DNA of 64,000 bases. Origin: Squalus acanthias (taxonomy: Eukaryota). The stretch's first letter is position 1. Each line of letters starts with the position of its first letter. The stretch is from assembly GCA_030390025.1 (NCBI GenBank), contig CM059431.1:153700001-153764000 (forward strand), written 5' to 3'. Positions 17,962 through 63,695 of this stretch are shown here, piece by piece. The notes below the pieces were generated by a model. It was given only the letters and a program-made list of their open reading frames with translations, ran no database searches and was not told where the DNA came from. The position numbers and the translations under genes are program-made.

Positions 17962-18293
17962 NNNNNNNNNNNNNNNNNNNNNNNNNNNNNNNNNNNNNNN
18001 NNNNNNNNNNNNNNNNNNNNNNNNNNNNNNNNNNNNNNNNNNNNNNNNNNNNNNNNNNNNNNNNNNNNNNNNNNNNNNNNNNNNNNNNNNNNNNNNNNNN
18101 NNNNNNNNNNNNNNNNNNNNNNNNNNNNNNNNNNNNNNNNNNNNNNNNNNNNNNNNNNNNNNNNNNNNNNNNNNNNNNNNNNNNNNNNNNNNNNNNNNNN
18201 NNNNNNNNNNNNNNNNNNNNNNNNNNNNNNNNNNNNNNNNNNNNNNNNNNNNNNNNNNNNNNNNNNNNNNNNNNNNNNNNNNNNNNNNNNNNN
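17962..18293. other. Assembly gap (332 N)
   Basis: Run of N. Confidence 1.
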
Positions 18294-19772
18294 GGTAGTG
18301 AAACATCGATCAATGATATCGTTAGTATTCAATATGAATTATAAAATGTATCGTTACAATCAAAATAATAAATATGTTAAAGGATTAAATCTAATGTCAA
18401 AGTAGGCTGACATATTAGTTCAGTTATATTGAGGAGGATATGATCAGATATCATCGTGGGTAGGCAATAGGAAGATAGCCAAAATATGTTTCCCACACAG
18501 GATACACAAATCACACGGGAATGAAAGCAGTGATGGGCAGACAAGAATTACTTGGGCTTGCAGATATAATGAAATAAACAATAGATTTTGAAATTGAATG
18601 TAGGATAATTGAGCTAGTTATATAAAACAAATGAAAGGAGCCTGGGTAATATAGTGAACATTTAATAGATGAATGAGTGGCCGGTGACAGAGTTCGAGAC
18701 AATGATCGCATTCTAAGTACACTTCGAGCAAAAAAGTTACACAAATGAAAGAGCAGTGTAGAGATGAAATGGGAATGGTTCATTTAGAGGGCGAAGGATT
18801 CACTGAAAAGCTATTGGTGCTGTTTCGATGAATTATCGTGATTTTGGAATGAATGAAAAACTCATTGAAGACAATGGAAATAAAGTCAGCCACAAGTAAA
18901 ACTGGGCTGCCAATTTGCTTAGCGCGTTTGACACAATTGGCCAACAACGGCCAACACCTTGTGACCCATTCTTTATGGTTGACAACTAGTGCAATCTGAG
19001 TTTCCAAAAAAGTAACTGTGAGCTTTCCACAATATTAAGGTCCTTAACTACCAATAATTATTCGTTTTGATCGGTTCCTATACCTGTAACCGTAGCTTTG
19101 TGCTTTGATTTTGCACTTTCCTCTTTTCCATAGGTCAGTTGCTGGTTATAATGAGAGAAAGTCCAGTCGACCAGGGTGTCTCAAAGGCTGACTCTTTTCT
19201 ATCTCTGTCACCTCTTCCAATCCTACAACCTGTCGAGATCCAGGCGCTGACCCAATTTCTTACCTCTTGTGCATCCCCATTTTCACGCTCCACCATTGAT
19301 GGCCTTGGCTTACGCGGATTTGACCCTAAGCTCTGGAATTCACACCGAAACCACTATGAATCTCTATCTCTCTTTTTTAAGACTCTCTTTAAATCTACTC
19401 TATGACCAAGCTTGGATCACCTGTCCTAATATCTTCCTCTGATGCTTGGTGTTACATTTTGTTGTTATAACACTCCCTTTTCAACGCTTTGGGACGTTTT
19501 ACTGCGCTAGTTCTTGTTGTTTCTTCTTAATTCTCATGGCAGGCACGCCTCCTGTCTGACTAATGGTGTATCTTCCTTTTATTCGCTTCTGGAATCTGGG
19601 CGACGCTGTCAAGGACAGCATTTATTGCTCATCCTTTATTTGTTTTCTGCATTAACTCCCGATTCTGAACGTTTCATGTCTCTCCGAAGGAAATGTTGAA
19701 ATAGCAAAACGTTTCATATCCGAGTTTGTACATTACTTCTCTATATATGATTGCAATATCCATTCTTGTTAG

Positions 19773-19969
19773 GAAATCAGATCCCTAGCTGAATGTCACC
19801 GCAGAAACGATGCATGCCAACTCATTTTCGATACCGTGCTGGAAAAGGGGGCTCGGGGAGAAAGAACAATGTGGAACATATTGCATCAACTGCAGAACAC
19901 CAAAACCAAGCTGAAAATGACATTGTCAGAGATAGAGATAGATGTACAAGGGAGAAAGTGATCTAGAAG
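19773..19969 (+). pseudogene. CARD-like module exon B1; 197 nt, frameshifted near its 3' end
   Basis: cttgttag|GAAATC...CTAGAAG|gttagt; two nt shorter than the other B exons (gagatagatgtacaaggg vs cagaacagatgtacagaggg), giving a TGA before the donor. Confidence 0.65.
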
Positions 19970-21041
19970 GTTAGTAGTATCAAATCTAATTTTCCGTTAG
20001 TATAACAACGTTTTATATAAGATGAGCGCTATTTTTAACTCGTTTATGTGATGTGGGCGTCGCAGCCAATGCCAACATTTATTACCCATCCCTAGTTGCC
20101 CTTGAGATGGTGGTGGTTAGCCGCTTTCCTGAAACGCTGCAGTATATGTGGTGAATGTTCTCCCCAATGCTTTTGGGGAGGCAGTGCCATGCGTTTGACA
20201 AAGCGACAATGAAGGAACGGCGATATACTTCCAAGAGAGGATGGTGTGTTTCTTGGAGGGGAATTTGGAAGTAGTGGTGTTCCCAGGCGTTGATAATCTT
20301 GACCTACTAGTTGGTAGAAGTCGCGGGTTTCGAGGTACTGGCGAAGAAGCCATGACGAGTTGCAGCAGTGCATCTTGTAGATGGTCCACTCTGCAGCCAC
20401 TGTGTGGCAGTGGGGAAGGGACTGGATGCGACGAATTTATACAGGCTTGTGTGAGTTTTATACTCGATTCATTGAAAGACCTTTGGCACTGCCCGTTATA
20501 AATTTCAGCTTGAACAGAGCTACACTACTCCGAAGCAAATTCACCTTTTGTTCCACGGATCCGTGATGCAATCATTAACTGATCTACTTTGATTCCTTAA
20601 AACACATTGATAATTTGTGAAAGGCTCCTACTCATCCTCAAATCTCTCGCCTACCTTATCTGTAAAGTCGTCTTCACATCCCCTATTTTGCACTCCAGTC
20701 CCTCCTCTCCCTTGCTGTGGTCTCCAGTGTACCAGTTCATCAGCTCCGAACTCCAGACATACAACTGATACACACCGACTGGAACTCAGTTCCTATGAGC
20801 TTCCATCTCTGTACTTCTTACTTATTAAATAACGATCACATTTAGCTAGGCCTGCGTTGTTTCTCTTAACACCAGCAGAACCGTCAGCGTTAATTCAGAA
20901 TACCACCTCTGTAAGGCACCACTGGCAATATTCACTGCTTGAAAGACACTCTGAAGAACTTCTGTCGCGATAGCATTTAGTTCAGAGTATTCACACTTTC
21001 ATGGCATTTATGTTAATCTGCTCTCGTTTACATCTTCACAG

Positions 21042-21211
21042 AAAATGCAGTTACTGAAATATTACCAACGTTGGCGAGCTACACGGATTTCCAGCTGCGC
21101 AGAGTTATCGTTTGCTATCGTCAGAGACTAGAACAGTCAATTGAAGAGGTAGTGGAGGCCGTTAGTCAGTCGCTTGTAGATGCAAACGTGCTTACTGAAA
21201 CAAATCATAAG
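21042..21211 (+). CDS. CARD-like module exon A1: NAVTEILPTLASYTDFQLRRVIVCYRQRLEQSIEEVVEAVSQSLVDANVLTETNHK
   Basis: cttcacag|AA...AAG|gtacgt; 170 nt, open. Confidence 0.75.
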
Positions 21212-24200
21212 GTACGTTTCATCTATGTTAGAATCGTATAGCGTTAAATGAGTCAAACGATTGACTGTTTAGACAGAGAGTATTCTGTGCAAACCCAACG
21301 ATATAACAGTAAAATAACGCTGTACTGGTTTAACTTCAGTAAGACAATCTGAAATTAAATGTCCTGTGCAGTGATTAGAAATACTCTTCTGAGATATCAC
21401 TGTTAAATTTTTTTTCTAGAATTGTCAATGCATTGCATTCTTAATACAGAACAGGACCTCATGGCTAACCGTGATTTTTAATGGCAGGCCTACTGTGCCC
21501 AATTGTCGTCCAAGCTGCTTCATGAATGACCTCTTCAAAGGTCAGAGTTGGGGCTATTCGCTATTGCTTGCACAATGTTTAGGTTCCGTTCGCAATTCCT
21601 CAGAAAATGAAAATGTCCATGCCCACACGCAGCATGACCCGGACAACATCCACGTTTGGGCCGATCAGTGACAGGTAACATTATGCTACGTAATTTCAGT
21701 TACTGGCTACTTGCAACTAGAGAATGAGTAACCTATTACCATTGAGATTCAAAACGCTTTACCATCGGCGTTCTACCACCATGAGTGTCTCGGTGATCAC
21801 CCATAAAACCGGCTTTGAGAATGTACTGCCAAACATCTTTCAGTTAACGTTATAACAGTAGCCAAGACACTCGAAATGAGTAATTGAATAAGACAAAACA
21901 TGCAGCGCAAGCAACATACATCATCATTACAGTCCAATGGACAACCAGGTGCTAATTCAAAACAGTTATAATCACAAAATTCAAATCTCATGTGAATTAG
22001 TTAACTGAATCATACGAACTTAACAGTATGACATTTCCTACGATCACATGCGAGATGTTCCGCCCATTCTCCATCAAAACGGCCGTGCGCTTCGAATTGG
22101 ATTGAGTCATTGCCGTTGGCGCGGACTGAAAAAATTCTGCTGAACATATCCAATTGGTTTCTTCCATTCTACTTCTTGCTATGTCCCAACCCTACCTCGG
22201 TCCAAAACTCAGGGAGGTCAACACACCTAGCATCTCCCGAGGCCACATCCTCTCACCTGAGGAATGATTAATGTCGCATTTCATAAAAATACCCTAGTCT
22301 AATCTATGATGTTTATCTGCTCCGTTTCTCCAATACCTCCTCAATCATGTAACACAAATGTAAACAGAAATAGTACTGTGAATAAAGCTGGGAATTTCAT
22401 GGTACAGTTTGTCTGAGGGGATGATATAATGATGTGATCGACGTGGCTCATATAAGGGCAGGATTGGGAGATGAATTGTGCTCTGTTACCTGAAGATCAT
22501 GGGAACTTAAGTTGTATTCAAATAGGGAGCATTCATCAATAACAGATTCAGTTGCAGAATTGGATCTTCAGGAATGATATAAGGAATGATTGAAAATAGA
22601 AATCTATAAGTTTGTCATAACACCATCATAACATAACTCTTTGTCTATAAGGCGTTCGTTGTCTTACACAACATAATGGAAACGTGATAGAAGAAGTGTT
22701 ATATAGACAAATTGGAGATAATGCAGCAATAATAGTAACAGCGATTGGTGACAGTAAATATCCAAAATACAGAAGTAACCCAAGTGGGGAAGGGAGGCCG
22801 TGGTGTCTGAAGCTTGTCCAGGACATTATTCAGCTGGCTAATATTTTGGACGACAAGAAAGGATTGAGCATTTCATCTATTTCTCGAAATGGGCAGGGCT
22901 AGTCGGTGAGGTAAAGGTAGTGAAACACTACCAATGATATCGTTTGTATTCATATGAATTTTAAAATGTTTCCTTACAATCAAAACAATAAATATGTTAA
23001 AGGATTAAATCTAATGTCAACTAGGCTGACATGTAAGCTCAGTTATATTGAGGCCGATATGATCAAATAATATCGTGGGTAGGCAATCGGAAGATAGACA
23101 ATATAGGTTTCCCATACAAGATACACAAATCACACGGGAATGAAAGCAGTGCAGGGCAGACAAGAATTACTTGGGCTTGCAGATATAATGATATAAACAA
23201 TAGATTTAAAATTGAATGTAGGAGTATTGGGCTAGTTATATTAAACAAATGAAGGAAGCCTGGGTAATACAGTGAACATTTAATCGATGAATGAGTGGCC
23301 GGCGACAGAGTTCGAGACAATGATCATATTCCATATACACTTCAAGGAGAAATGGTACACAAAGTAAAGAGCTATGTCGAGATGAAATGGGAATGGTTCA
23401 TATAGGGGACGAAGGATTCACTGAAAAGCTGTTGGTACTGTTTCAATTAATTAACGTGATACTTGGAATGAATGAAAAACTCATTGAAGTCAATGGAAAA
23501 GAAAGTCAGACGCGAGTAAAAAGGGGCTGCCAATTCCCTTCTGCGCGTTTGACCCAATTGGCCAACAATGGCCAACACCTTGTGACCAATGTTTATGTTT
23601 GTCAACTTGTGCAATCTGAGTTTCTAAAAAACTAACAGAGAGCTTTCATAAATATTAAGTTGCTTAACTGCCAATAATTATTGGTTTTGATTATATCCTA
23701 CACCTATATCCGTAGGTTTGTGCTTTGATTTTGCACTTTACCCTTTTCCATCAATCACTTCCTGGTTATAATGAGAGAACGATCAGTTGCCGTGGGTGTC
23801 TCAAAGCTGCTCCTTTCTATCACTGTAACCACTTCCAATACTACAACCTGGCGAGATCCAGGCGCTGGTCCAGTTCTGGCCACTTGTGCATCGCCATTTC
23901 CATCGCTCCACCATTGACGGCCTTGCCTTAAGCGGTTTAGACCCTAAGCTCTGGAATCCGCCCCCAGCGCCCCGCCCCCCCCCCCCGCCAAACCACTATG
24001 AATCTCTATCTCTCTCTTCTCTAAGACTCTCTTTAAAGCTACTCTGTGACAAAGCTTTGGTCACCTGTCCTAATATCTTCATCTGATGCTTGGTGTTACA
24101 TTTTGTTTGATAAAACTCACTTTGCAACGCTTTGGGACATTTTACTTCGCTATATCTTGCTGTTTCTACATAATTCTCATTGCAGGCACGCCTCCTGTCT

Positions 24201-27200
24201 GACTAATGGCGTGTATTCCTTTTATTCGCTTATGGGATCTGGGCGTCGCTGGCAAGGACAGCATTTATTGCTCATCCCTTAATTGTTTTCTGCATTAACT
24301 CCCGATTCTGAGCGTTTCATCTCTCTCCTAAGGAAAGCTCGATATAAAAAGGACGTTTCTTATCCGAGTTTGTACATTACTTATCTATATATGATTGCAA
24401 TATACATTCTTGTTAGGAAATCAGATCCCTAGCTGAATGTCACCGCAGAAGCGATGCAACCCAACTAATTTTCGATACCGTGCTGGAAAAGGGAGCTCGG
24501 GGAGAAAGAACAATGTGGAACATATTGCTTCAACTGCAGAACACCAAATCCAAGCTGAAAATTTCGTTGTCAGAGATACAGAATGGAAGTACAGAGGGAG
24601 AAAGTGATCTAGGAGGTTGGTGGTATCCAAATCTAAATTTCCTTTAGAATGACAAAGTTTTATTTGAGGTGAGAATTTTATTTTATTCTTTTAAGTGATG
24701 TCGGCGTCACTGGCAAGGCCAGCATTTATTGCCCATCCCTAGTTGCACTTGGGAAGGTGGTGGGTATCCGCTCCTGCTCATCCTAAAAGCCCTCCCCCAC
24801 TTTATCTCTAAAATCGGCTTCACAACGCCTCTTTTACACTCCTGTCCGTCCTCTCCCCTTGCTGTGCTTTGCAGTCAACCAGTTCATCTGCTCCGGACTC
24901 CAGACATAGAACTCATCCACACGGAGTTGAACACAGTTCCTATGAGCTTCCATCTCTGTATGTCTTAATATTTTAAGCACCGACCACATGTTGCAAGGCC
25001 TGGTTCGTTCTCTTAACTCCAGCAAAACAGTCAGCCTTAATTCTGAATTCCACCTCTGTAAGGCTCCACTGGCAGTGTCACCGCTAAAGAACTGCCGTCG
25101 CGATAGCAGTTAGTTCAGAGTATTCACTGTTTCATAGCGGAAATTTATGTTCATCTCTTCTCATTTATACCTTCAAAGAAAATGCAGTTACTGAAATATC
25201 ACTAACGTTGGCGAGCTACACGGATTTCCAGCTGCGCAGAGTTATTGTTTGCTACCGTCAGAGACTAGAACATTTAATTGAAGAATTCGTGGAGGCCGTT
25301 AGTCAGTCGCTTGTAGTTGCAAACGTGCTTGCTGAAAAAGATCATAAGGTATGTTTCATATATGTTCGAATCGGATGATGTTAAATGAGTCAAACGATTG
25401 ACTGTTTCGACAGACTGTGTTCTGTGCAACTCAACTATATTAGCGGTACTTCACGCTGCACTTTATTGACTGAAATTGTTGTCCAGTGCCAGTGTAGTCA
25501 ACATTTGAAGTACTCTTCTGAGATATCTCTCTGTTAAATTAATTTTTCATGAATTTTCAATGAATGTATTCATAATAAGAGAAGTTTCTAATGAACTAAC
25601 TGTGATTTTTTAACGCAGCCTGCTTGGCCCAATTATCGCCAGCTTCAATAATTTTCCTTCAAAAGCTCAGAGTTGGGGCTGTTCGCTGATGATTGCACGG
25701 TGTTTAGTTCCATTCGCAAATCCTCAGAAAATGAAGCATTCCATGCGCACACGCAGCATGACCTAGATAACATCCATGTTTAGTCCGATAAGGGCAGGTA
25801 ACATTTATGCCACGGAGTACCAGGTACTGGCTACCTACAGCTGGAGAAAGTCTAACAAATTGCCATTGACATTCAATAGCTTTACCATCGGATTTCTACC
25901 ACCATGAATGTCCTTGTGATCAGCAGTAAAAACCAGCTCTGAGATTTCACTGCCAAACTTCTTGCAGTTAACGTAATTCCAGTAGCCAAGCACCTCGAAA
26001 TGAGTAATTGAATAAGACACAATGTGCAGCCTAAGCATCATGCATCCTCATTACAGCCCCAATGGACAACCTGGAGATAGATCAAAACTGTAATAACCAC
26101 ATACTTCAAATCGCATGTGAATAAGTTAACTGACACATACGAACTTAACCGTATGAATTTCGCTACGATCACGGCCAAGATTTTCCACCCATTCTCCATC
26201 AAAACGGCCGAGAATTTCCAATTGGATTGAGCCATTGCCGGTGGTGCGGATTTAAACAATTTCTGCTGAACATATCCATTCGTTTCTTCTATTCTACTTC
26301 TGCTAATTCCCGCCCCTACTTTGGTCCAATGCTCAGGCACATGAAAAAAAACCGGCCTCTCCCGAGGCCACATCCTCTCCCCTCATGAATGCCATAATAT
26401 CCCAATTCTTAAAAAAAACCTAGTCTAATCTATGATGTTTATCTTCTCCCTTGCTCCAATAACTCCTCACTTATGTAACACAAATGTAATGAAACATAAT
26501 ACTGTGAATAAAGCGTGTGAGTTCAATGAATAGTTTGTCTGAGGGTATGAAATAATGATTTGATCAACGTGGCTTATATAAGGGCAGGATTGGCAAATGA
26601 AGTGCCCTGTTACCAGAAGATCATGGTAACTTAAGTTGTATGCAAATAGGGAGCAGTCATTAACAACAGATTCATTTGCCGCATTGGAGCTTCAGGACTG
26701 ATATAAGGAATGATTCAAAATAGAAATCTATAAGTTCGGGGTAACACAATAATAATGGAACACTTTTTCTATAAGGCGCTCGTTGTCTTACACCAAATAG
26801 TGGAAAAGGGATAGAAGAAGAGTTATATAGACAAATTGGAGAAAATGCAGCAATAACATTAACGTTGATTTTTGACTTTAAATATCCCAAGAACAGAAGT
26901 AACATAAGTGGGGAAGGGAGGCCAGGCTTCTGAAGCTTTATCAGGACATTATTCAGATAGGTTCAATTTTAGGACAACAATAATTAATTGAGCATTTGAT
27001 CCATTTCTAAAAATTAACAGCGGATACTCAGTGAGGTAAGTCTAGTGAAACATTCACCAATTATATCGTTAGTATTCATGTGAATTAGAAAATATCTCGT
27101 TAAAATCAAAAAAATAAATATGTTAAAGGAAAATATCTAATTTCAACGCGGCTAACATAATAGCTCAGTTATATTGAGGCAGATATGATCAGATAATATC

Positions 27201-30200
27201 GTGGTGAGGCAATAGAAAGATAGCCAATAGAAATTTACCATACAAGATACACAAATCACACTTGACTGAAAGGAGTGCAGCAAAAACTAGAATTACTTCG
27301 GCGTGCATAGAAAATGAAATAAAGAACAGATTTTACAATTGAATGTAGGAGTGCAGGGCTAGTTATATAAAACAAATGAAGGACCGCTTGATAATATAGT
27401 GAATATATAATAGATGTTTGAGTTGCCGGTGACAGAGTTCAGACAATGATCACATTCCGTATAAACTTCAAAGAAAATAGTTACACAAACAACAGAGCTG
27501 CTTAGAGATGAAAAGGGAATGGTTCATATATATGACGAAGGATTCACTGAAAAGCTATTGGTACTGTTTCGATGAATGAAGGTGATACTTGGAATGAGTG
27601 AAAAACTCATTGAAGTCAAATGAAAAGAAAGTCAGAAGCGAGTAAAAAGTGCCGCCGATTCGCTTCAGAGCGTTTGACCCAGTTGTCCAACACTGGACAA
27701 CATCTTGTGACGCATTATTTATGTTTGTCAACTTGTGCAAACTGAGTTTCTAAAAATCAAGCTGTGAGCTTTCAAAACGATTATTGTCCTTAACAACGAA
27801 TAATTATTGATTTTGACCGTATCCCATAGCGGTAATCTTAAGTTTGTGTTTTGATTTGGCTCTTTACCCTTTTCAGTCAATCAGTTGCTGCTTAAAATGA
27901 AAGAAAGTACAGTCGCCGTAGGTGTCTTAAAGCTGCTCCTTTCTATCTCTGTAACCTCTTCCAATCCTACAACCTGTCGAGAGCAAGGCGCTGGTCCTGT
28001 TCTGGCCTCTTGTGCATCTCCCATTTTCATCGCTGCAACATTAATGGCCATGCCTTCAGCGGTTTAGACCCTAAGCTCTGGAATTCCCTCCCGAAACTAC
28101 TGTGAATCTCTAACTCGCTCTTTTCTAAGACTCTCGATAAATCTACTCTATGACCAAGCTTTGGTCACCTGTCCTAATATCTTCCTCTGATCCTTAGTGT
28201 TACATTTTGTTTGATAACACTCCCTTTGCAAGGCTTTGGGACGTTTTACTACACTAGTTCTTTTTGTTTCTACTTAATTCTCATTACAGGCACGCCTCCT
28301 GTCTGACTGATGGCGTATCTTCCTTTCATTCGCTTATGGGATCTGGGCGTCGCTGGAAAGGCCAGCATTTATTGCTCATCCCATAATTGTTTTCTGCATT
28401 AACTCCCGATTCTGAGCGTTTCATCTCTCTCCTAAGGAAAGCTATAATTGAAAAGACATTTCCTATCAAATATTGTACAATTCTTCTCTATATTTGATTG
28501 CAATATACATTCTTGTTAGGAAATCAGATCCCTAGCTGAATGTCATCGCAGAAGCGATGCATCCCAACTCATTTTCGATACTGTGCTGGAAAAGGGAGCT
28601 CGGGGAGAAAGAACAATGTGGAACATATTGCTTCAACTGCAGAACACCAAACCCAAGCTAAACATGACATTGTCTGAGATACAGAATAGATGTACAGAGG
28701 GAGAAAGTGATCTAAAAGGTTAGTGGTGTCCAAATCTAATTTTCCGTTAGAATAACAAAGTTTTATTTAGGATGAGCACTATGTTTTACTCGCTTATATG
28801 ATGTGGTCTTCGCTGCCAAGGCCAGCATTTATTATCCATCCCTGGTTGCCCTTGAGAAGGTGGTGGTTCGCCGCTTTCCCTGAAATGCTGCAGTCCATGT
28901 GGTGAAGGTTCTCCCACAATGCTGTTGGGGAGGCAGTGCCATGAGTTTGACAAAGCGAAAATGAAGGAACGGCGATATACTTCCAAGAGTGGATGGTGTG
29001 TGTCTTGGAGGGGAACCTGGAAGTGTTGGTGTTCCCAGGCGCCTGATACTCTTGACCTTCTAGTTGCTAGAGGTCGCGGGTTTCGGAGGGTACTGGCGAA
29101 GAATCCTTGACGAGTTGCCACAGTGCATCTCGTAGATGGTCCACTCTGCAGCCACTGTGGTGGCAGTGGGAAAAAGACTGGATGCTACTAATTTATACAG
29201 GCTTGTGTGAGTTTTATACTCGATTCCTTGAACGAACTTATACATTTCAGTTTGCACAGAGCTCCACTACTCCTGTGCAATTTCACGTTTTTTTCCACGG
29301 ATCCTTGATGCCCTCAATAACTGACCAACTTTGATTCCTTAAACCATATTGATCATTTGTTAAAGGCTGCTACTCATCCTCAAATCTCTCGCCTACCTTA
29401 TCTCTAAATCTTCTTAACATCCCCTCTTTTGCACTCCAGTCCCTCCGCTACCTTGCTGTGGTCTCCAGTGTACAAGTTCATCAGCTCCGAACTCCAGTCA
29501 TAGAACTCATCCACACGATCTGGAACTCAGCTCCTATGATCTTCAATCTCTGTACTTCTTGCTTATTTAAACAACGACCGCACTTAGCAAGGCCTGGTTG
29601 TTTCTCTTAACTCCAGCAGAACTGTCAGCGGTAATTCTGAATACCAGCACTGTAAGGCATCACTGGCAGTGTTCACTGCTTGAAAGACACTCTTAAAGAA
29701 CTTCTGTCGTGATAGCCGTTACTTCTGAGTATTTACTGTCCCATAGCATTTATGTTAATCTGTTCTCATTTACACCTTCACAGAAAATGAAGACACTGAA
29801 ATATTACCAACTTTGGCGAGCTACACGGATTTCCAGCTGCGCAGAGTTATCGTTTGCTACCGTCAGAGACTAGAACAGTCAATTGAAGAGATAGTGGAGG
29901 CCGTCAGTCAGTCGCTTGTAGATGCAAATGTGCTTGCTAAAACAAATCATAAGGTATGTCTCATCTATGTTAGAATCGTATAGTTTTAAATGACTCAAAC
30001 GATTGACTGTTTATAGTCATAAAGTCATAGAGTCATAGAGTTGTACAACATAGAAAGAGGACCTCGGCCCATCGCGTCCGGCGCCGGCCATCAAGCCCTG
30101 TCTATTCTAACCCCATTTTCCAGCACTTGTTCCGTTGCCTTGTATGATATGCCGTGTCAGTGCTCATCCAAATGCTTCTTGAATGTTCTCTGGGTTCCTG

Positions 30201-54200: not shown

Positions 54201-57200
54201 GATGAAGCGGATGAGTTGTAGGATGGCTTCTGGAGATTGGCTGTTGTTGGTGTTGAGCACTGAGGCTGTCGCAGCGATGACGTCATCGTGGGGGATACTG
54301 GTGTAGAGTGCCGATACGTCCATCGTGGCAAGGAGTGTTCCTGGTTCAACTGGTCCGTGGGTGCTGAGTTTTTGTAAGAAGTCTGTAGTGGCGCGGCAGA
54401 AGCTGGGGGTTCCCTGTACGATGGGTTTCAGAATGCCCTCGACGTATCCAGAGAGGTTCTCACACAGGGTTCCGTTGCCTGATACGATAGGACGTCCGGG
54501 TGTGTTGGCTTTGTGTATCTTTGGGAGGCAGTAGAAGTCTCCCACGCGGGCAGTACGTGGCATGAGAGCGCGTAGGATGTTTTGAAGGTCTGGATCGAAG
54601 GTCTTGATCAGTCTATTGAGTTGGCGGGTGTGTTCTTTGGTCGGATCTGCGGGTAGCTGTCTGTAGTGTTCCTGGTTGTCCAGTTGTCGGTATGCTTCTT
54701 TGCAATAGTCCATTCTGTTCTGTATGACGATGGCTCCTCCTTTATCCACTGGTTTGATGTCGATGTTGCGGTTGGTCTTGAGAGCGTGAATGGCATTGCG
54801 TTGTGCTCGGGTGACATTCTGGACTGTCTTGTGAGTGCGGCTGATGAATCTGGCGTCGATACATCTCCTGACAGCTTGAGCATACATGTCAAGCTTGGGG
54901 CAGCGACCCTCCGGAGTGGTCCATTTTGACTCTTATTTCTTCGGTTGCTGCACTGCGAGTCCCTCTGTCTGCTGTTCTGGATCATTGATTGTCTGATTGG
55001 GTTTGTTGCTGACATCTTGTGATTTGTGGAAGTATTCCCGCAGCCTCATTCTCCTGATGAATTCCACCGTGTCCGCCGCGAGACCGATGGGGTCCATTTT
55101 GGTGGTGGGGCAGAACTTGAGCCCTAGGGCGAGAACTTCGATTTCGTCTGGTTGAAGGGTATGGTCGGACAAATTGACGATGGATTCAAATAGGGAGCAT
55201 TCGTTAATAACAGATTCAGTTGCAGAATTGGATCTTCAGGAATGATATAAGGAATGATTCAAAAAGAAATCTCCAAGTTTGCGTTAACACCATCATCACA
55301 TAACTCTTATTGTATAAAGCGTTCGTTGTCTTACACAAAATAATGTAAAAGTGATAGAAGAAGAGTTATACAGACAAATTGGAGATAATGCAGCAATAAC
55401 AATAACAGTGATTGGTGACTATAAATATCCAAAGTACAAAAGTAACCTAAGTGGGGAAGGGAGGCCGTGGTGTCTGAAGCTTGTCCAGGACATTATTCAG
55501 CTAGCTACAATTTTGGACGACAAGAAAGGATTGAGCATTTCATCTATTTCTCGAAATGGGCAGGGGCTAGTCAGTGTGGTAAGGGTAGTGAAACACTACC
55601 AATAATATCGTTAGAATTCATATGAATTATGAAATGTTTCCTTACAATCAAAACAATACATATGTTAAAGGATTAAATCTAATGTCAACGAGGCTGACAT
55701 ATTAGCTCAGTTATATTGTGGCCGATATGATCAAATAATATCGTGGGTAGGCAATAGGAAGATAGACAACGATAGCAAAATACTGCGGATGCTGGAAATC
55801 CGAAATAACAACAGAAAACGCTGGAAAAACTCAGCAGGCCAGGCAGCATCCGTGGAGAGAGAAAGAGAGTTAACGTTTAAAGGTCATCGACCTGAAACGT
55901 TAACTCTCTTTCTCTCTCCACGGATGCTGCCTGGCCTGCTGAGTTTTTCCAGCGTTTTCGGAAGATAGACAATATAATTTTCCAATACAAGATACACAAA
56001 TCACACGGGAATTGTAGCATTTCAGGGCAGAGAAGAATTACTTGGGCTTGCAGAGATAATGAAATAAACAATAGATTCAAAATTGAATATCTGAGTGTAG
56101 GGCTAGTTATATTAAACAAATGTAGGAAGCCTGGGTAAGATAGTGAAAATTTAATCGATGAATGAGTGGCCGGTGACAGATTTCGAGAGAAGGACCCTAT
56201 TTCTTATACACTTCAAGGAGACATGGTACACAAAGTAACGAGCGATGTAGAGATGAAATGGGAATGGTTCATCCAGAGGACGACTGATTCACTGAAATGC
56301 TGTTGGTACTTTTTCGATGAATTAACGTGAAACTTGGAATGAATGAAAAACTCATTCAAGTCAATGGACAGAATGTCAGACGCGAGTAAACTGGGCTGTC
56401 AATATGCTTCAGCGCGTTTGACCAAATTGACCAACAACATAGAAACATAGAATCTAGGAGCAGGAGTAGGCCATTCGGCCCATCGAGCCTGCTCCACCAT
56501 TCAATACGATCATGGCAGATCATTCAAATCCAGTACCCTGTCCCTGCTTTAATCCCCACAGTACACATATCCCACCCTACCCCCGTAACCCCACGTATTT
56601 AATTCCCCCTAACATATCCCATCCTATCCCCATAACCCCACATATTGAATCCCACCCTAACACTAAGGGTCAATTTATCATAGCCAAATCAACCTAACCC
56701 GCACATTTTTGGACTGTGGGTGGAAACCGGAGGACCCGGAGAAAACACACGCAGACTTGGGAGAATGTGCAAACTCCACACAGACAGTCACTCGAGGTCA
56801 GATTCGAACCCGGGTCCCTGGCGCTGTGAGGCACCAGTGCTAACCATTATGCCACCGTGTGACCCATTTTTATGGTTGTCAGCTTGTGGAATATGAGCTT
56901 TTAAAAAACTATCAGTGAGCTTTGAAAAATATTAAGTTGCTTAAATGCAAATAGTTATTGGTTTTGATCGTATCCTATATCTGTAACCGTAGCTTTGTGC
57001 TTTCATTTTGCACTTAAAACTTTTCCATCAACCAGTTGCTGGTTATAATGAGAGAAAGATCAGTTGCCCTGGGTGTCTCAAAGCTGCTCCTTTCTGTCTC
57101 TGTAAACTCTTCCAATCCTACAAACTGTCGAGTATCAGGCGCTGGCCCAATTCTTATCTCTTGTGCATTCCCCATTTCCATCGCTACACCATTGATGGCC

Positions 57201-60200
57201 TTGCCTTAAGCGGTTTAGACACTAAGCTCTGGAATTCCCTCCCAAACCACTATGAATCTCTAACTCTCTCTTCTGTAAGACTCTCTTTAAATCTACTCTG
57301 TGACCAAGCTTTGGTCACCTGTCCTAATAACTTCATCTGATGCTTGGTGTTACATTTTGTTTGATAACACTCCCTTTGCAACGCTTTGTGACGTTTTACT
57401 ACGCTAGTTTTTGTTGTTTCTACGTAATTCTCATTGCAGGCACGCCTCCTGTCTGACAAATGGCGTATCTTCCTTTTATTCGCTTATGGGATCTGGGCGT
57501 CGCTGTCAAGGACAGCATTTATTGCTCATCCCTTAATTGTTTTCTGCATTAACTCCCGATTCTGAGCGTTTTATCTATCTCCGATGGAAAGCTTGAAATC
57601 GAAAAGACGTTTCTAATCCGAGTTTGTACATTACTTCTCTATATATGATTGCAATATACATTCTTGTTAGGAAATCGGATCCCTAGCTGAATGTCACCGC
57701 AGAAGCGATGCATCGCAACTCATTTTCGATACCGTGCTGGAAAAGGGAGCTCGGGGAGAAAGAACAATGTGGAACATCTTGCTTCAACTGCAGAACACCA
57801 AACCCAAGCTGAAAATGACATTGTCAGAGATACAGAACAGATGTACAGAGGGAGAAAGTGATCTAGGAGGTTGGTGTTATCCAAATCTAATTTTCCGTTG
57901 GAATAAGAAAGTTTTATTTAAGGTGAGAATTATATTTTATTCTTTTAAGGAATATGGGCATCACTGGCAAGACCAGCATTTATTGCCCATCCCTAGTTGC
58001 ACTTGCGAAGTTGTTGGGTAACCGCTTTCCTGAAACGCTGCAGTCGATGTGGTGAAGGTAAACCCACAATGTTGTTGGAGAGGGAGTGCCATGAGTTTGA
58101 CACAGCGACAATGAAGGAAAGCGATATACTTTAAAGTTAAGATGGTGTGTGAGTTGGAGGGGAAAATGGAAGTAGTGGTGTTCCCAGGCGCCTGCTGCTC
58201 TTGTCCTTCTAGGTGGTAGATCTCGTGGAATTGGTGGGTACGTCGAAGAAGCCTTGACGAGTTCCCACAGTGACTCTTGCAGATGGAACACTCTGCAGCC
58301 ACGATGTGGCAGTGGGGAAGGGACTGGATGCTACTAATTGATTCATGCTTGTATGAGTTTTATACTTAATTGCTTAAACGAACTTTGGCACTGCCCGTTA
58401 TAAATTTCAGCTTGGACAGTGACCAATACTCCTATTCAAATTCACCCTTAGTTCCACGGCTCCGTGATGCCCACATTATCTGACCTACTTTAATTAATTA
58501 TCCCATATTGACCATTTGTGAAAAGCTCCTGCTCATCGTAAAAGCCCTCCCCCACTTTATCTCTAAAGTCGTCTTCAAAACCCCTCTTTTGCACTCATGT
58601 CACTCCTCTCCCCTTGCTGTTGTCTCCAGTGTACAAGTTCATCTGGTCCGGACTCCAGACATAGACTTCTTTCACACCGACTGGAACTCAGTTCCTATGA
58701 GCTTCCATCTCTTCACGTCTTACTTATTTTAAGCATCGACCATATGTTGCAAGGCCTGGTTCGTTCTCTTATTTCCAGCAAAACAACCTGCGTTAATTCT
58801 GAATTCCACCTCTGTAAGGCTCCACTGGCAGTGTCACCGCTAAACAACTGCTGTCGCGATAACAGTTAGTTCAGAGTATTCACTGTTTCATAGCGGGCAT
58901 TTATGTTAATCTGTTCTCTTTTATAATTTCAAAGAAAATGCAGTTACTGAAATATCACTAACGTTGGCGAGCTACACGGATTTCCAGCTGCGCACAATTA
59001 TCGTTTGCTACCGACACAGACTAGAACAGTCAATTGAAGATTTCGTGGAGGCCGTTAGTCAGTCGCTTGTAGATACAAACGTATTTACTGAAACAGATCA
59101 TAAGGTATGTTTCATATATGTTCCACTCGTATGGTGTTAAATGAGTCAAACGATTGACTGTTTAGACAGACCGTGTTCTGTGCAAACCAACTAAAATAGC
59201 GGTACTTTACGCTGCACTTTATGAACTGAAATTATTGTCCAGTGCCAGTGTAATCAACATTTGAAGTACTCTTCTGAGATATCTCTCTGTTAAATTATTT
59301 TTTCAGGAATTTTCAATGAATGTATTCATAATAAGAGAAGTTTCTCATGGACTAACATTGAGTTTTTTAATGGCAGCCTTCTTGGCACAATTATCGCCAG
59401 TTTATATACTCTTCCTTCAAAAGCTCAGAGTTGGGGCTGTTCCCTGATGATTGTACGGTGTTTAGTTCCATTCTCAAATCCTCAGAAAATAAAGCAGTCG
59501 ATGCCCATACGCAGCATGACCTAGACAACATCCATGTTTAGGCCGATAAGGGGCAGGTAACATTTATGCCGCGTCGTACCAGCTACTGACTACCTACAGA
59601 TAGAGAAAGTCTAACTCTTTGCCGCTGACATTCAATGGCTTTACCATAGGAGTTCTACCACCATGAGTGTCCCGTTGATCACCAGTAAAACCGGCTGTGA
59701 GAATTCACTGCCAAACTTCTTGAAGTTAACGTAATTCCAGCAGCCAAGCCCCTCGAAATGAGTAATTGAGTAAGACACAATGTGCAGCCTGAGCATCACG
59801 CATCCTCATTAAAGCACCAAATGGAAAACCTGTAGATAGATCAAAACTGTAATAACCACATACGTCAAATCGCATCTGAATAAGTTAACTGACACATACG
59901 AACTTAACAGTATGAATTTCCCTACGATCACGGCCGAGATTTTCCGCCCATTCTCCATCAAAACGGCCGAGAATTTCCAATTGGATTGAGCCATTGACGG
60001 CGGATTTAAACAATTTCTGCTGAACATATCCAATTCGTTTCTTCTATTCTACTTCTTGCTAAGTCCCGCCCCTACTTTGGTCCAATGCTCAGAGACATCA
60101 ACAAACCCGGCCTCTCCCGAGGCCAGATCCTCTCACCTCATGAATGCCATAATTTCCCATTTCTTAAATAAACCTAGACTAATCTATGATGTTTAACTGC

Positions 60201-62317
60201 TCCATTTCTCCAATAGCACCTAACTTATGTAACATAAATGTAATGCAACATAGTATTGTGAATAAAGCTTGTGAGTTCAATGAACGCTTTGTCTGATGGT
60301 ATGACATAATGATTTGATCAGCGTGCCTTATATAAGGGCAGGATTGGGAAATGAAGTTCCCTGTTACCAGAAGATCATGGTAACTTAAGTTGTATGCAAA
60401 AAACTGGAGCAGTCATTAATAACAGATTCATTTGCAGCATTGGAACTTCAGGACTGATATAAGGAATGTTTCAAAATAGAAATCCAGAAGTTTGGGGTAA
60501 CACAATAATAATGGAACACTTTTTGTATGAGGCGTTCGTTGTCTTACACCAAATTGTGGAAAAGGGATAGGCGAAGAGTTAGATAGACAAATTGGAGAAA
60601 ATGCAGCAATAACAGTAACGGTGATTGTTGACTTTAAATATCCTAAGAACAGAAGTAACATCAGTGGGGAGGGATGCCAGGAGTCTGAAGCTTTCCCAGG
60701 ACATTATTCAGATAGGTGCCATTTTAGGACAACAAGAAAGGATTGAGCATTTGATCCATTTCTAAAAATTGACAGCGGCTACTCAGTGAGGTAAGTCTAG
60801 TGAAACATTCACCAATTTTATCGTTAGTATTCATATGAATTAGAAAATGTTTCGTTAAAATCAAAACAATAAATATGTTTAAGGAAAATTTCTAATTTCA
60901 ACGTGGCTAACATATTAGCTCAGTTATATTGAGGCAGATATGATCAGATAATATCGTGGTGAGGCAATACAAAGATAGACAATAGAAGTTTACAATACAA
61001 GGTACACAAATCACACGTGAATGAAAGGAGTGCAGCACAAACTATAATTACTTGAGCGCGCATAGAAAATGAAATAAAGAACAGAATTTACAATTGAATG
61101 TAGGAGTGTAGGGCTAGTTATATAAAACAAACGAAGGACGTGTTGGTAATATAGTGAATATATAATAGACGAATGAGTGCCCGGTGACAGAGTTCATATA
61201 ATGATCAAATTCCGTATAAACTTCAAAGAAAATAGTTACACCAATAACAGAGCTGCTTAGAGATGAAAGGGGAATTGTTCATATAGATGACGAGGGATTA
61301 ACTGAAAACTATTAGTACTGCTTCTATGAATGAAAGTGATACTTGGAATGAGTGAAAAACTCATTGAAGTCAATTGAAAAGAAAGTCAGACGCGAGTAAA
61401 ACGGGCCGCCGATTCGCTTCAGAGCGTTTGGCCAGGTTGGCCAAAACTGGCCAACACCTTGTGACCCATTATTTATGGTTGTCAACTTGTGCAATCTGAG
61501 CTTCTAAAAACCAAGCTGTGAGCTTTCAAAACGATTATTGTCCTTAACAACGAATAATTATTGATTTGATCGGATCCCATACCTGTAATCTTAAGTTTGT
61601 GCTTTTTTTGCACTTGACCCTTTTCCATCAATCTGATGCTGGTTATAATGAGAGAAAGTCCATTCGCCGTGGGTGTCTCAAAGTTGATCTTTTCTATCAC
61701 TTTCACCTCTTCCAATCCTACAACCTGTAAGATCCAGGCGCTGGTCCAGTTCTGGCCTCTTGTGCATCCCCCATTTTCATCGCTGCACCATTCCTTCAGC
61801 AGTTTAGACACTAAGCTCTGGAATTCTCTCCAGAAACGAACATGAATCTCTAACTCTCTCTTCTCTTAGACTCTCTTTAAATCTACTCTGTGACCAAGCT
61901 TTGGTCACCTGTCCTAATATCTTCCTCTGATGCTTGGTGTTACATTTTGTTTGATAACACTTCCTTTGCAACGCTTTGGGACGTTTTACTACACTAGTTC
62001 TGGTTGTTTCTACTTAATTCTCATTGCAGGCACGCCTCCTGTCTGACTGATGGCGTTACTTCCTTTTATTCGCTTATGGGATCTGGGCGTCGCTGGCAAG
62101 GATAGCATTTATTGCTCATCCCTTAATTCTTTACTGAATTAACTCCCGATTCTGAGCGTTTCATCTCTCTCCGAAGGAAAGCTAGAAATAGAAAAGACGT
62201 GTCTTATCCGAGTTTGTACATTACTTCTCTATATATGATTGCAATATACATTCTTGTTAGGAAATCAGATCCCGAGTTGAATGTCACCGCAGAAGCGATG
62301 CTTCCCAACTCATGTAA
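21042..62317 (+). CDS. Putative spliced poly-CARD/death-fold protein (exons A1-B2-A2-B3-A3-B4-A4-B5-A5-B6-A6-B7-A7-B8), ~812 codons, six complete 123-aa repeats; start not identified
   Basis: 13 full exons of constant length (170/199 nt) with AG/GT boundaries, alternating compatible phases and no stops on manual translation, ending at TAA in B8. The helical pattern YRQRL..I..V..V...L....VLT.....I......D....I.D.V..KG......W..L matches a CARD-like fold. Confidence 0.7.
24417..24615 (+). CDS. CARD-like module exon B2: EIRSLAECHRRSDATQLIFDTVLEKGARGERTMWNILLQLQNTKSKLKISLSEIQNGSTEGESDLG
   Basis: cttgttag|GAA...GGAG|gttggt; 199 nt, open. Confidence 0.75.
25179..25348 (+). CDS. CARD-like module exon A2
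   Basis: cttcaaag|AA...AAG|gtatgt; 170 nt, open. Confidence 0.75.
28520..28718 (+). CDS. CARD-like module exon B3
   Basis: cttgttag|GAA...AAAG|gttagt; 199 nt, open; several synonymous differences from other copies (CAT, ACT, CTA, TCT). Confidence 0.75.
29784..29953 (+). CDS. CARD-like module exon A3
   Basis: cttcacag|AA...AAG|gtatgt; 170 nt, open. Confidence 0.75.
30014..33980 (-). mobile_element. CR1-clade LINE, degenerate (ORF1 zinc finger/SGNH esterase, ORF2 AP endonuclease and RT), 7-bp TSD ctgttta
   Basis: ORF fragments 33350..33979 (GDSIVRG), 32607..33095 (VTETWL), 31314..31592 (KSPGPD), 30476..31060 (FADDTK); 8-bp tail repeat (agtcatag)n; ctgttta at 30007-30013 and 33981-33987. Confidence 0.92.
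37073..37271 (+). CDS. CARD-like module exon B4
   Basis: cttcttag|GAA...GAAG|gttagt; 199 nt, open. Confidence 0.75.
38129..38298 (+). CDS. CARD-like module exon A4
   Basis: cttcacag|AA...AAG|gtatgt; 170 nt, open. Confidence 0.75.
41408..41606 (+). CDS. CARD-like module exon B5
   Basis: cttcttag|GAA...GAAG|gttagt; 199 nt, open; almost identical to B4. Confidence 0.75.
42554..47186 (-). mobile_element. Near full-length CR1/HER1-like LINE, degenerate, with 5' tandem monomers
   Basis: ORF1 fragments 46222..46560 and 45601..46276, endonuclease 44722..45339, RT 42785..44273; tail (aacataga)n at left end; host unit sequence resumes at ~47187. Confidence 0.92.
46640..47186 (-). repeat. ~73-bp tandem monomers (~7 copies) at the 5' end of the LINE
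   Basis: aa(g)tgag motif recurs at ~46671, 46744, 46816, 46889, 46963, 47036 and 47109. Confidence 0.85.
47318..47487 (+). CDS. CARD-like module exon A5
   Basis: cttcaaag|AA...AAG|gtatgt; 170 nt, open. Confidence 0.75.
49782..49980 (+). CDS. CARD-like module exon B6
   Basis: tttgttag|GAA...GAAG|gttagt; 199 nt, open. Confidence 0.75.
51058..51227 (+). CDS. CARD-like module exon A6
   Basis: cttcacag|AA...AAG|gtatgt; 170 nt, open. Confidence 0.75.
52519..55183 (-). mobile_element. Penelope-like retroelement (RT + GIY-YIG endonuclease), 5'-truncated and degenerate
   Basis: ORF 53880..54887 (LPKIHK..PGRPIVS, GTAMG, RYIDDIF), 53571..53834, and 52953..53204 (LRQRMNGH...GLN, GIY-YIG C-terminal part); pLTR-like end at ~52520-52640. 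Confidence 0.92.
55770..55959. mobile_element. 190-bp palindromic insertion (65-bp perfect inverted arms), 13-bp TSD
   Basis: Arms 55814-55878 and 55895-55959; ggaagatagacaa at 55757-55769 and 55960-55972. Confidence 0.85.
56436..56858 (-). mobile_element. tRNA-derived V-SINE (HE1-like) with CR1/HER1-type 3' tail
   Basis: Minus strand: A box ggtggcataatggtt, B box gggttcgaatc, V-domain-like gtggagtttgcacattctccc...ccggtttccacccacagtccaaa, tail matching the LINE 3' ends at 12660-12750 and 42554-42650. Confidence 0.8.
57671..57869 (+). CDS. CARD-like module exon B7: EIGSLAECHRRSDASQLIFDTVLEKGARGERTMWNILLQLQNTKPKLKMTLSEIQNRCTEGESDLG
   Basis: cttgttag|GAA...GGAG|gttggt; 199 nt, open; partly captured by ORF 57734..58021. 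Confidence 0.75.
58935..59104 (+). CDS. CARD-like module exon A7
   Basis: tttcaaag|AA...AAG|gtatgt; 170 nt, open. Confidence 0.75.
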
Positions 62318-62459
62318 GGTACCGTGCTGGAAAAGGGAGCTCGGGGAGAAAGAACAATGTGGAACATATTGCTTCAACTGCAGAACACCAAACCCAAGCT
62401 GAAAATGACATTGTCAGAGATACAGAACAGATGTGCAGATGGAAAAAGTGAGCTAGGAG
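62261..62459 (+). pseudogene. CARD-like module exon B8 with in-frame TAA at 62315-62317
   Basis: CTC ATG TAA GGT replaces CTC ATT TTC GAT of the other copies; splice sites intact. Confidence 0.7.
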
Positions 62460-63525
62460 GTTAGTAGTATCCAAATCTAATTCTCCGTTAGAAAAACAAA
62501 GTTTTATTTAAGATGTGCACTATTTTTTACTCGTTTATGTGATGTGGGCGTCGCTACCAAGGCCAGCATTTATTAACAATCCCTAGTTGTCCTTGAGAAG
62601 GTGGAGGCTTGCCGCTTTGCTGAAACGCTGCAGTCCATGTGTTGAAGGTTCTCCCACAATGCTGTTGGGGAGGCAGTGCCATGAGTTTGACAAATGTCAA
62701 TGAAGGAACGGCTGTATACTTCCAAGAGAGGATGGTGTGTGTCTTGAAAGGGAACTTGGAAGTGTTGGTGTTCCCAGGCGCCTGATACTCTTGCCCTTCT
62801 CCTTGGTAGAGGCCGCGGGTTTCGGAGGTACTGGCGAAGAAGCCTTGACGAGTTCCCGCAGTGCATTTTGTAGATGGTCCACTCTGCAGCCACTGGGTGG
62901 CAGTGGGGAAGGGTCTGGATGCTACTAATTTATAAAGGCTTGTGTGAGTTTTATACTCGATTCCTTGAACGAACTTATAAATTTCGGCTTGGACAGAGCT
63001 CCACTACTCCTATGCAAATTCACCTTTTGTTCCTCGGATCCGTAATGCCCTCATTAACTGAACTACTTTGATTCCTTAAACCACATTGATCATTTGTGAA
63101 AGGCTCCTACTCATCCTCAAATCTCTCGCCTACCTTTTCTCTGAAGTCGTCTTCACATCCCCTCATTTGCACTCCAGTCCCTCCTCTCCCTTGCTGTGCT
63201 CTCCATTGTACCAGTTCATCAGCTCCGAACTCCAGACATACAACTCATCCCCACCGAATGGAACTCAGCTCATATGAGCTTCCATCTCTGTACTTCTTGC
63301 TTATTTAAACAACGACCACACGTAGCCAGGCCTGGGTTGTTTCTCTTAACTCCAGCAGAACATTCAGCGTTAATACTGAATACAACCACCTCTGCAAGGA
63401 AACACTAACAGTGTTCACTGCTTGAAAGACTCTCGAAAGAACTTCTGTCGCGATAGCCGTTAGTTCAGAGTATTCACTTGTTCCATAACATTTCTGTTAA
63501 TCTGTTCTCATTTACACCTTCACTG

Positions 63526-63695
63526 AAAATGCAGATACTGAAATATTACAAACATTGGCGAGCTACACGGATTTCCAGCTGCGCAGAGTTATCGATTGCC
63601 ACCGTCAGAGACTAGAACAGTCAATGGAAGAGGTAGTGGAGGCCGTTAGTCAGTCGCTTGTAGATGCAAACATGCTTACTGAAACAAAACTTAAG
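63526..63695 (+). pseudogene. CARD-like module exon A8; frame open but acceptor AG mutated to TG
   Basis: cttcactg|AAAAT instead of cttcacag|AAAAT; 170 nt; donor gtatgt retained. Confidence 0.65.

Follow-up and report, generated by a model that had tools for sequence, protein, structure and literature searches.

The Squalus acanthias genome (3.7 Gb) contains, on contig CM059431.1 (C7), a stretch of 64,000 nucleotides (positions 153700001-153764000; hereafter the window) in which two short open frames recur on the plus strand from position 19773 to the window end, raising the question of what kind of gene they form. An earlier note on this DNA had described a hidden gene built from eight tandem two-exon CARD cassettes. 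We analyzed the window together with 50 kb of upstream and 100 kb of downstream flanking DNA; coordinates are window positions, and those called window-scale continue the same numbering past the window end. Our results show that the array is the 5' part of an NLR gene, of which the window covers the 5' two-thirds, and the repeated module is very probably a CARD.

Six-frame scans and boundary checks confirmed the exon counts, lengths and phases that had been proposed. The window holds eight copies of an exon A of 170 nt, entered in phase 1 and left in phase 0, and eight copies of an exon B of 199 nt running from phase 0 to phase 1. All lie on the plus strand and alternate, and A plus B amount to 369 nt, encoding a module of 123 amino acids. 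The splice sites were canonical in nearly all copies, with GT at the exon A donors (8/8), AG at the exon B acceptors (8/8) and AG at the usual exon A acceptor in seven of eight. This part of the earlier description does not hold for exon A at 63526, which has TG at the acceptor and an in-phase AG 9 nt downstream, nor for the first exon B, whose donor is displaced by an indel. When the exons were joined by script from A1 onward, the frame remained open to codon 812, comprising six complete modules as the note had stated, and codon 813 is a TAA in the exon B at 62261. Since the exon copies are 87-98% identical to each other at the nucleotide level and each exon occurs more than 100 times on the same chromosome arm, their recurrence is not due to chance.

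The first exon present is an orphan exon B (B0, 19773-19971), which has an AG acceptor and an indel near its end that introduces a premature stop. Exons A and B of cassette 1 (21042-21211 and 24417-24615) are both open and bordered by ag and gt. They are followed, on the same strand, by those of cassette 2 (25179-25348 and 28520-28718), cassette 3 (29784-29953 and 37073-37271), cassette 4 (38129-38298 and 41408-41606), cassette 5 (47318-47487 and 49782-49980), cassette 6 (51058-51227 and 57671-57869) and cassette 7 (58935-59104 and 62261-62459). The counterpart of the stop-bearing exon B of cassette 7 is open in a paralogous array described below (array 2). Exon A of cassette 8 (63526-63695) is the last exon in the window, its partner B lying outside at window-scale 71590.

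Beyond the end of the window the array extends for another 33 kb, with four more A and five more B exons, and the last B ends at window-scale 96578. The count of eight is thus right for the A and B exons within the window, but with its 12 A and 13 B exons the whole array amounts to at least 12 cassettes, preceded by the orphan B. At 1.9 kb after the last B, and 34.5 kb beyond the window end, an open exon of 614 codons was found (window-scale 98476-100317). In Pfam this exon scores 113.1 bits for NACHT (cut-off 26.7, E 1.6e-32) and 30.1 bits for NOD2_WH (cut-off 23.1, E 5.2e-07), and it reaches 30.1 bits for NLRC4_HD2, below the cut-off of 33.1. Its translation includes a Walker A motif (GSSGIGKST) and a Walker B motif (LFIFDD). 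The arrangement characteristic of NLRs, a NACHT domain with both Walker motifs followed by winged-helix (WH) and helical domains, is accordingly present in an exon outside the window. A phase-1 AG acceptor at window-scale 98537 fits the phase-1 exit of exon B, and the gene model P0006 of Mustelus asterias passes from its last module to its NACHT part at the equivalent point. Two further short exons (window-scale 102470-102559 and 102836-103027) align at 55-67% with the C-termini of P0006, P0007 and P0004. The repeat region is short, and Pfam found no LRR in these exons and none in P0006 or P0007 at E ≤ 0.01.

Because the array ends 1.9 kb before the NACHT exon and the short LRR-like exons, it belongs to the 5' part of an NLR gene, and the idea of a stand-alone CARD gene had to be abandoned. 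The search of the flanks that the note itself had suggested thus yielded NACHT and LRR-like exons downstream, and no first exon. The gene is laid out as one or more missing 5' exons, at least 12 CARD cassettes, a NACHT/WH/HD2 exon and short LRR-like exons. As every cassette begins and ends in phase 1, any number of cassettes spliced in series stays in frame with the NACHT exon.

The same organization is found in elasmobranch NLRs named 'NLRP3-like' or 'NLRP12-like' by NCBI, such as P0006 (1186 aa) and P0007 of Scyliorhinus torazame (1405 aa), which share the N-terminal module, the NACHT-WH-HD2 exon and the short LRR-like end. Their NACHT exon is 47-50% identical to that of the window gene, and the joints between modules and between module and NACHT fall at the same places. 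The profile of the window module matches the N-terminal module of most of the retrieved elasmobranch 'NLRP3-like' NLRs, in agreement with the resemblance to expanded chondrichthyan NLRs that the note had proposed.

To identify the module, we relied on natural homologous proteins and on a scripted profile of the spliced window module, while Pfam was run on single exons. A profile of the eight B exons, run against 1.84 billion representative proteins, matched 24 proteins at E ≤ 0.001; the named elasmobranch matches among those looked up came from Scyliorhinus torazame, Mustelus, Cetorhinus, Hemitrygon, Hypanus, Pristis and Pristiophorus. In alignments to single-module homologues, exons A and B abut without gap or overlap. 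A profile built from ten stop-free spliced window modules gave contiguous matches in annotated proteins over profile positions 1-114 of 122. It matched residues 7-116 of the homologue P0123 (160 aa) with E 5e-21, and an AF2 model of this protein, based on a 14-row alignment, reached a mean pLDDT of 84.3. In a VIA-align search with the model, CARDs made up 32 of the top 34 rows (Z 7.5-11.8, model residues ~15-117). The best match was the CARD of NLRC4 (Z 11.8, root-mean-square deviation 2.8, 89 residues aligned), and the CARDs of ASC, ARC, NOD1, caspase-1 and Apaf-1 as well as the tandem CARDs of RIG-I and MDA5 (Z 9.8 and 9.7) were also found. Death domains and death-effector domains appeared from rank 35 only, the first being a death domain with Z 7.4. 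In Foldseek, nine of the top ten matches were CARDs, with a best E value of 0.4. The model of P0123 is thus a six-helix death-fold bundle whose nearest solved structures are CARDs. Module 5 of the catshark protein P0007, which the window module profile matches with E 3e-32, passes the Pfam CARD (PF00619) cut-off of 23.9 with 40.4 bits, and P0108 stays just under it with 22.9 bits.

Several results speak against this assignment. The exons are too short for Pfam, and CARD fails on window exons taken singly: exon A reached 12.9 bits (E 0.12) in one of two copies, and exon B gave nothing relevant. No Pfam CARD match was obtained for P0006 at E ≤ 0.01. For helical bundles, Z values below about 13, and thus all those obtained here (at most 11.8), can reflect a common arrangement of helices. 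The module profile found no CARD among the PDB sequences, its ten hits (E 0.09-5) being led by a designed protein and including annexins (E 0.17-0.75). In view of the uniform identity of the structure matches, we nevertheless accept that the module is, with high probability, a CARD; the note's death-fold assignment is borne out at the fold level for the homologous module, and by Pfam on the catshark homologue only. The CARD core would comprise about 100 of the 123 residues, the remainder being a short extra N-terminal helix and a linker.

An annexin identity, suggested by weak Pfam Annexin matches of exon A (E 0.039 and 0.07) and by the annexin matches in the PDB, was rejected on account of the CARDs in the fold search. 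The metagenome repeat protein P0118, matched by the exon B profile in seven stretches (E 6.9e-5), was taken as spurious. Another PDB profile search was uninformative for the module, as LRR-bearing alignment rows led to ribonuclease inhibitor and NLRP LRRs. A word-index search with exon B against longer proteins gave no match at E ≤ 0.001 among 23 candidates, and the three-module part of P0006 gave none at E ≤ 1e-5 among 5627 candidates of 2077-5000 aa; both are weak evidence.

The window array is not the only one of its kind on the chromosome. Array 2 (C7 154613169-154710493), 0.9 Mb away, is collinear with it and has three extra cassettes at the 5' side. All of its 30 exons (15 A and 15 B) have open frames, and its splice sites are canonical throughout except at one of the 15 A acceptors, where the AG is lacking. 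The 139-kb cluster to which array 2 belongs contains two additional, diverged cassettes farther upstream. The NACHT exon of array 2 is open and 99% identical to that of the window array. Between the two arrays, 29 of 4428 exon bases differ (0.65%; 10 synonymous, 17 missense and 2 stop changes), as do 17 of 1680 flank bases (1.0%), which are too few differences to test for selection. In array 3 (C7 155454220-155512747), the eight A and eight B exon hits are free of stops and the NACHT exon, of 94% identity, is open. Each of the three arrays is followed after 1.9-5 kb by a NACHT exon that is open, lies on the same strand and matches in phase.

In a survey of C7 from 153.7 to 159.6 Mb, in which 72 of 672 NACHT candidates were scored, at least 116 B, 107 A and 26 NACHT hits were obtained. 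They include at least seven simple A-B-NACHT genes, strictly alternating arrays of at least 5, 8, 12 and 17 cassettes ending in a NACHT hit, and further arrays of at least about 5, 6, 7, 9 and 9 cassettes with NACHT not among the hits listed. Open frames of 104 amino acids at other copies were considered as intron-less CARD exons and rejected, since they are B exons read into the intron and these arrays, too, consist of A/B cassettes.

The coding status of the cassettes was assessed by evolutionary tests on the 12 cassettes (24 exons) of the window array. Mean pairwise divergence is 0.08-0.09 in exons versus 0.115-0.29 in the 200-nt flanks. The 24 exons (369 nt per cassette) are free of indels, whereas the flanks show 46 distinct gap intervals over 800 nt. 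On a parsimony tree, the 155 substitutions of the window array include one that creates a stop, where 7.1 would be expected (P 0.006); the other stop of this array required two changes within one codon. Array 2 had none versus 9.7 expected among 206 (P below 0.0001). In a third tested array (158.03-158.09 Mb) one was scored versus 5.7 expected among 116 (P 0.02), and the final exons are without stop. Over the whole window array, the A donors are GT (12/12), the B acceptors AG (13/13) and the B donors intact in 12 of 13. The exon A copies have two in-phase acceptors 9 nt apart, with AG at the first in 10 of 12 and at the second in all 12, so both exons without the first AG (cassettes 8 and 12) retain the one downstream. 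In a related array of nine cassettes (C7:158025705-158089551), the first AG is lost in 9/9 A exons and the +9 AG is the sole acceptor.

We read the frame and the splice signals as being under selection and, on this ground, the cassette exons as probably translated. Along the module, 54 of 122 positions are invariant and changes cluster at positions 1-10, 51-60 and 111-122. Individual residues would in our reading be free, or even pushed, to change, mostly in linkers and loops.

These tests bear on the possibility that only the NACHT-adjacent cassette, together with an upstream start exon, is used, the other cassettes being young relics that decay or have been homogenized by gene conversion after unequal crossing-over. 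The high mutual identity of the cassettes (87-98%) indeed points to a young age, and the missense-to-synonymous ratio is not significantly below neutral. The window array has two stops, one broken orphan exon and two altered acceptors, and its differences from array 2 fit neutrality. However, relics would not be expected to show a depletion of stops in three arrays, exons devoid of indels and splice sites kept in nearly all copies, and the NACHT-nearest cassette is itself one of the two without the first AG in the window array. Most cassettes being relics is therefore quite unlikely.

If the cassettes are translated, the question arises whether they are joined in one chain. With the window profile, most matched proteins showed one module, while ten had two to five adjoining modules: five in P0007, four in P0107, three in P0006 and P0109, and two in P0108, P0110, P0025, P0115, P0129 and P0114. 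Gene models of five other elasmobranch species join two to five modules in one reading frame, the Pristis pectinata model XP_051865178 has two, and the ten models with two or more adjoining modules indicate that tandem modules are a recurrent trait of the elasmobranch family. The longest runs among those compared are by far those of the S. acanthias genome, with at least 12 in the window array and 15-17 in its paralogue, as opposed to mostly one and at most five in the elasmobranch models. In a structure model of the four modules of P0107 (overall pLDDT 63), the modules reach pLDDT values of 70-90 and the linkers remain below 50. As this model shows folded modules and disordered linkers at a pTM of 0.32, we picture beads on a string instead of a rigid rod. 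As judged from sequence, several or many cassettes are probably included together in the mRNA, and the product would then be an NLR bearing CARDs in series.

The array could alternatively be a menu from which one or a few cassettes per mRNA are chosen by alternative or mutually exclusive splicing, leading to isoforms with different CARD surfaces. Any subset of phase 1-1 cassettes is in frame, and the stop-bearing ones could be skipped. Frames and splice sites that are kept while amino acids change almost freely (ratio of nonsynonymous to synonymous substitution rates, dN/dS, of 0.7-0.9) fit a diversification of alternatives, as does the clustering of changes at three places with 54 of 122 positions never varying. 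On the other hand, the models of the five other elasmobranch species join their modules in one frame, and the most variable stretches are taken to be linker ends. Moreover, the B-to-A spacers are fairly flat in conservation (0.76-0.92 per 40 columns) with no strongly conserved island, although no specific search for selector or docking elements was made. We regard such a choice as rather unlikely.

Transcription and termination of the array, or a part of it, on its own would yield NACHT-less multi-CARD adaptors or decoys, along the lines of the decoy role raised in the note. Public models consisting of CARD modules only do exist (P0107 with four modules, P0108 with two, P0109 and P0110), and several arrays in the genome have no NACHT among the hits listed nearby. 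The latter means little with 72 of 672 candidates scored, however, and the window array, array 2 and array 3 all run in matching phase toward an open NACHT exon on the same strand. Since a start codon for such a product was not found either, CARD-only products of the array are very unlikely.

Two of the public models show a further feature. P0108 of Cetorhinus maximus (342 aa) ends, after its two modules, in a C-terminal hydrophobic stretch resembling a tail anchor, and the same stretch is found in P0007 between modules 4 and 5 (residues ~560-610). From the sequences, the P0007 model may fuse a membrane-anchored multi-CARD protein with a one-CARD NLR. The layout of such a membrane-anchored protein would be MAVS-like.

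On its 5' side the array is cut within an A-to-B intron by a run of 332 N (17962-18293), which is an assembly gap or a withheld stretch. Similarity to A-to-B introns starts at the first base right of the gap, where 1479 nt (18294-19772, plus strand) match, at 82-87%, the 1.5 kb that precede ten other B exons and form the 3' part of an intron whose exon A is missing in the gap; the B at 19773 is therefore an orphan. The 1962 bases left of the gap (16000-17961) have no match to the array, and the true 5' end of the gene is absent from the assembly at this place. No indication of a first exon was obtained: the flat conservation profile of the B-to-A spacers gives no hint of a hidden exon, some of the spacer sequence resembles a dispersed repeat, and the 7 kb upstream of the array 2 cassette at 154613169 are mostly retroelement-like. 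Residues 1-132 of P0006, when used as a query, have no match anywhere in the genome. They include two hydrophobic stretches resembling membrane spans and may stem from fusion with an upstream gene or be a genuine membrane anchor.

Left of the gap, an Oxysterol_BP exon of an OSBP/ORP gene lies at 17584-17724 on the minus strand, within an open reading frame (ORF) at 16585-17748 (Pfam E 6.8e-11, ORF residues 9-55), and the sequence there consequently belongs to another gene. The region 800-17455 is filled with dense GC-rich minisatellites (periods of 29, 31, 33, 42, 49, 50 and 67 nt, up to 33 copies), among which a reverse-transcriptase ORF of a long interspersed nuclear element (LINE) is found at 11415-12023. 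At the gap the GC content changes abruptly: the bins to the left have 0.45-0.59, and those from bin 18001 on have 0.34-0.48. Downstream of the NLR gene, the ORF list contains long ORFs in retrovirus-like order at window-scale 112847-121332 (plus) and 158713-163202 (minus). Short NACHT-like fragments at window-scale 139387-139596 (minus) and 140120-140260 (plus) match P0006, P0007 and P0004 and look like remnants of another NLR gene.

The gap cutting the array and the collinear, 99% alike array 2 could also mean that the repeat number, or the whole array, results from mis-assembly of a repetitive immune locus. Yet the cassettes differ by 2-13%, their retroelement insertions are not the same and the spacers between them vary in length (563-5711 nt), and arrays of 5-17 cassettes with different sequences occur at ten or more places. 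An artefact is thus extremely improbable, and this doubt extends at most to the cassette count and to the relation between the window array and array 2, not to the structure.

A number of observations weigh against a translated string of CARDs in the window gene. A look-up of RNA sequencing runs for positions 24400-30000 listed none. No exon A contains an in-frame ATG, nor do the ORFs running into exon A, and a tblastn search with P0006, P0007 and P0004 over 214 kb gave only module, NACHT and LRR-like parts and no N-termini, leaving the first exon unfound. Amino-acid constraint is weak, with a pairwise dN/dS of 0.72 overall (0.92 for A, 0.58 for B) and ratios near 1 for cassettes 4, 7, 10 and 11, and in none of the tested arrays does the synonymous excess reach significance (p 0.19, 0.064 and 0.66). 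The multi-module homologues are predicted gene models, and no confident arrangement of the modules relative to each other came out of the P0107 model (pTM 0.32). From their sequences, the window array and array 2 may be two haplotypes of one locus placed in series and not two genes. An all-inclusive frame of the window copy meets stops in B7 (62261) and B10 (window-scale 80773); this copy must therefore skip cassettes 7 and 10, or be the decaying twin of the open 15-cassette paralogue 0.9 Mb away. Finally, the co-inclusion of cassettes by B-to-A splicing, the position of the start codon and the consequence for signalling are what we infer. Separate transcription of each unit was rejected, as neither exon A nor the ORFs entering it supply an ATG and the spacer measures only ~1.07 kb.

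The cassette has been multiplied in tandem within the gene, probably via unequal crossing-over of a ~4-kb unit, with later retroelement insertions stretching some units to 8-9 kb. The A-to-B introns in the window measure 2.3-7.1 kb and the B-to-A spacers of the whole array 563-5711 nt, eight of 12 being 1059-1077 nt long. The long intervals hold retroelement-type ORFs. Two of these have Pfam matches, namely a LINE endonuclease ORF (44725-45345, minus strand) in the 5.7-kb spacer after exon B of cassette 4 and a reverse-transcriptase ORF (53883-54932, minus strand) in the intron of cassette 6. The 7.1-kb intron of cassette 3 contains two ORFs with retroelement-like motifs and without Pfam match (30479-31078 and 33353-34009). 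The 5.7-kb spacer also includes a 73-nt tandem repeat of 7.4 copies (46641-47185), which ends ~130 nt short of the exon A of cassette 5.

With several or many cassettes included, the product would be an NLR carrying CARDs on flexible linkers of ~20-25 aa. CARD signalling operates through pairs such as NOD1/2-RIPK2, NLRC4-caspase-1 and RIG-I-MAVS. NACHT-driven activation would create a high local concentration of CARDs, which could recruit or nucleate RIPK2-, ASC- or caspase-type partners more readily than a receptor with one or two CARDs, and owing to this high valency a lower threshold for nucleation of the partner CARD filament would be expected. A more far-reaching version, which we consider unlikely, is that 12-17 CARDs on one polypeptide fold into several turns of a CARD helix and act as a built-in filament seed. 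A single activated receptor would then nucleate the polymer without an NLR disc, and gain or loss of cassettes (8, 12 and 15-17 copies in three paralogues) would tune the firing threshold.

Tandem N-terminal CARDs on a nucleotide-driven sensor are likewise found in NOD2, RIG-I and MDA5, and tandem CARDs of this type nucleate a downstream CARD filament. Those receptors, however, have two differing CARDs in a fixed pair, whereas the window gene has many near-identical ones in variable number with long predicted flexible linkers; instead of exactly two non-identical CARDs, at least 12 near-identical cassettes and no confident packing (pTM 0.32) were found. In its genomic form the array resembles kringle IV-2 of LPA and the Olduvai repeats of NBPF, where a two-exon domain in a unit of a few kb is repeated head-to-tail within one gene, phase-compatible and in variable copy number. 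The kringle and Olduvai domains belong to unrelated genes, for which it is established that the mRNA contains every copy; for the window gene, joint inclusion is a prediction.

Another fish gene model with many CARDs in one chain is the unnamed P0112 of Arctogadus glacialis (1254 aa), with eight Pfam CARD stretches (E 9.3e-93) and two death domains, which the exon B profile matches with E 4.6e-07. In contrast to the window gene, it lacks a NACHT domain, and its CARDs are of the classical kind and distant relatives of the window module; it is another possible poly-CARD fish protein, unrelated to NLRs.

Our literature search for multiple or tandem CARDs in shark or fish NLRs turned up no account of arrays like these. 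The whale shark genome paper describes, in the portion available, an expanded new NLR family near the NLRPs and does not mention repeated CARDs there (PMC8455134), and the accessible part of a 2025 review of fish NLRs mentions tandem CARDs for NOD2 only. The zebrafish NLR-B30.2 genes, likewise an expanded family, exchange exons by shuffling, and in some of their groups the peptide-repeat exons ahead of the NACHT exon are 'extensively duplicated' (Howe et al., 2016, PMC4852459). According to the available excerpt, that repeat is a ~30-aa peptide of unknown fold confined to that family, whereas the repeat in the window is a whole 123-aa death-fold domain spread over two exons. Already known are thus public, uncharacterized gene models with two to five modules, which are unnamed or named after PYD-bearing proteins although their module is CARD-like. 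New are the scale (at least 12 modules, and up to 15-17 in the paralogue), the cassette architecture and the evidence that the frame is maintained.

Since a large elasmobranch NLR family, which public annotation names after PYD-bearing proteins, carries this module as its standard N-terminal domain, assigning the module to the CARDs means that other downstream partners should be sought in sharks and rays. Death-fold signalling is understood as nucleated polymerization of single or paired CARDs gathered by receptor oligomerization. If our reading is true, a receptor in which a dozen CARDs or more are covalently linked would offer a natural way of testing how CARD valency sets the threshold and speed of the switch. 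It would also represent a new route of NLR diversification, through the copy number of an effector domain within a gene, in addition to the known routes of gene-family expansion and LRR variation.

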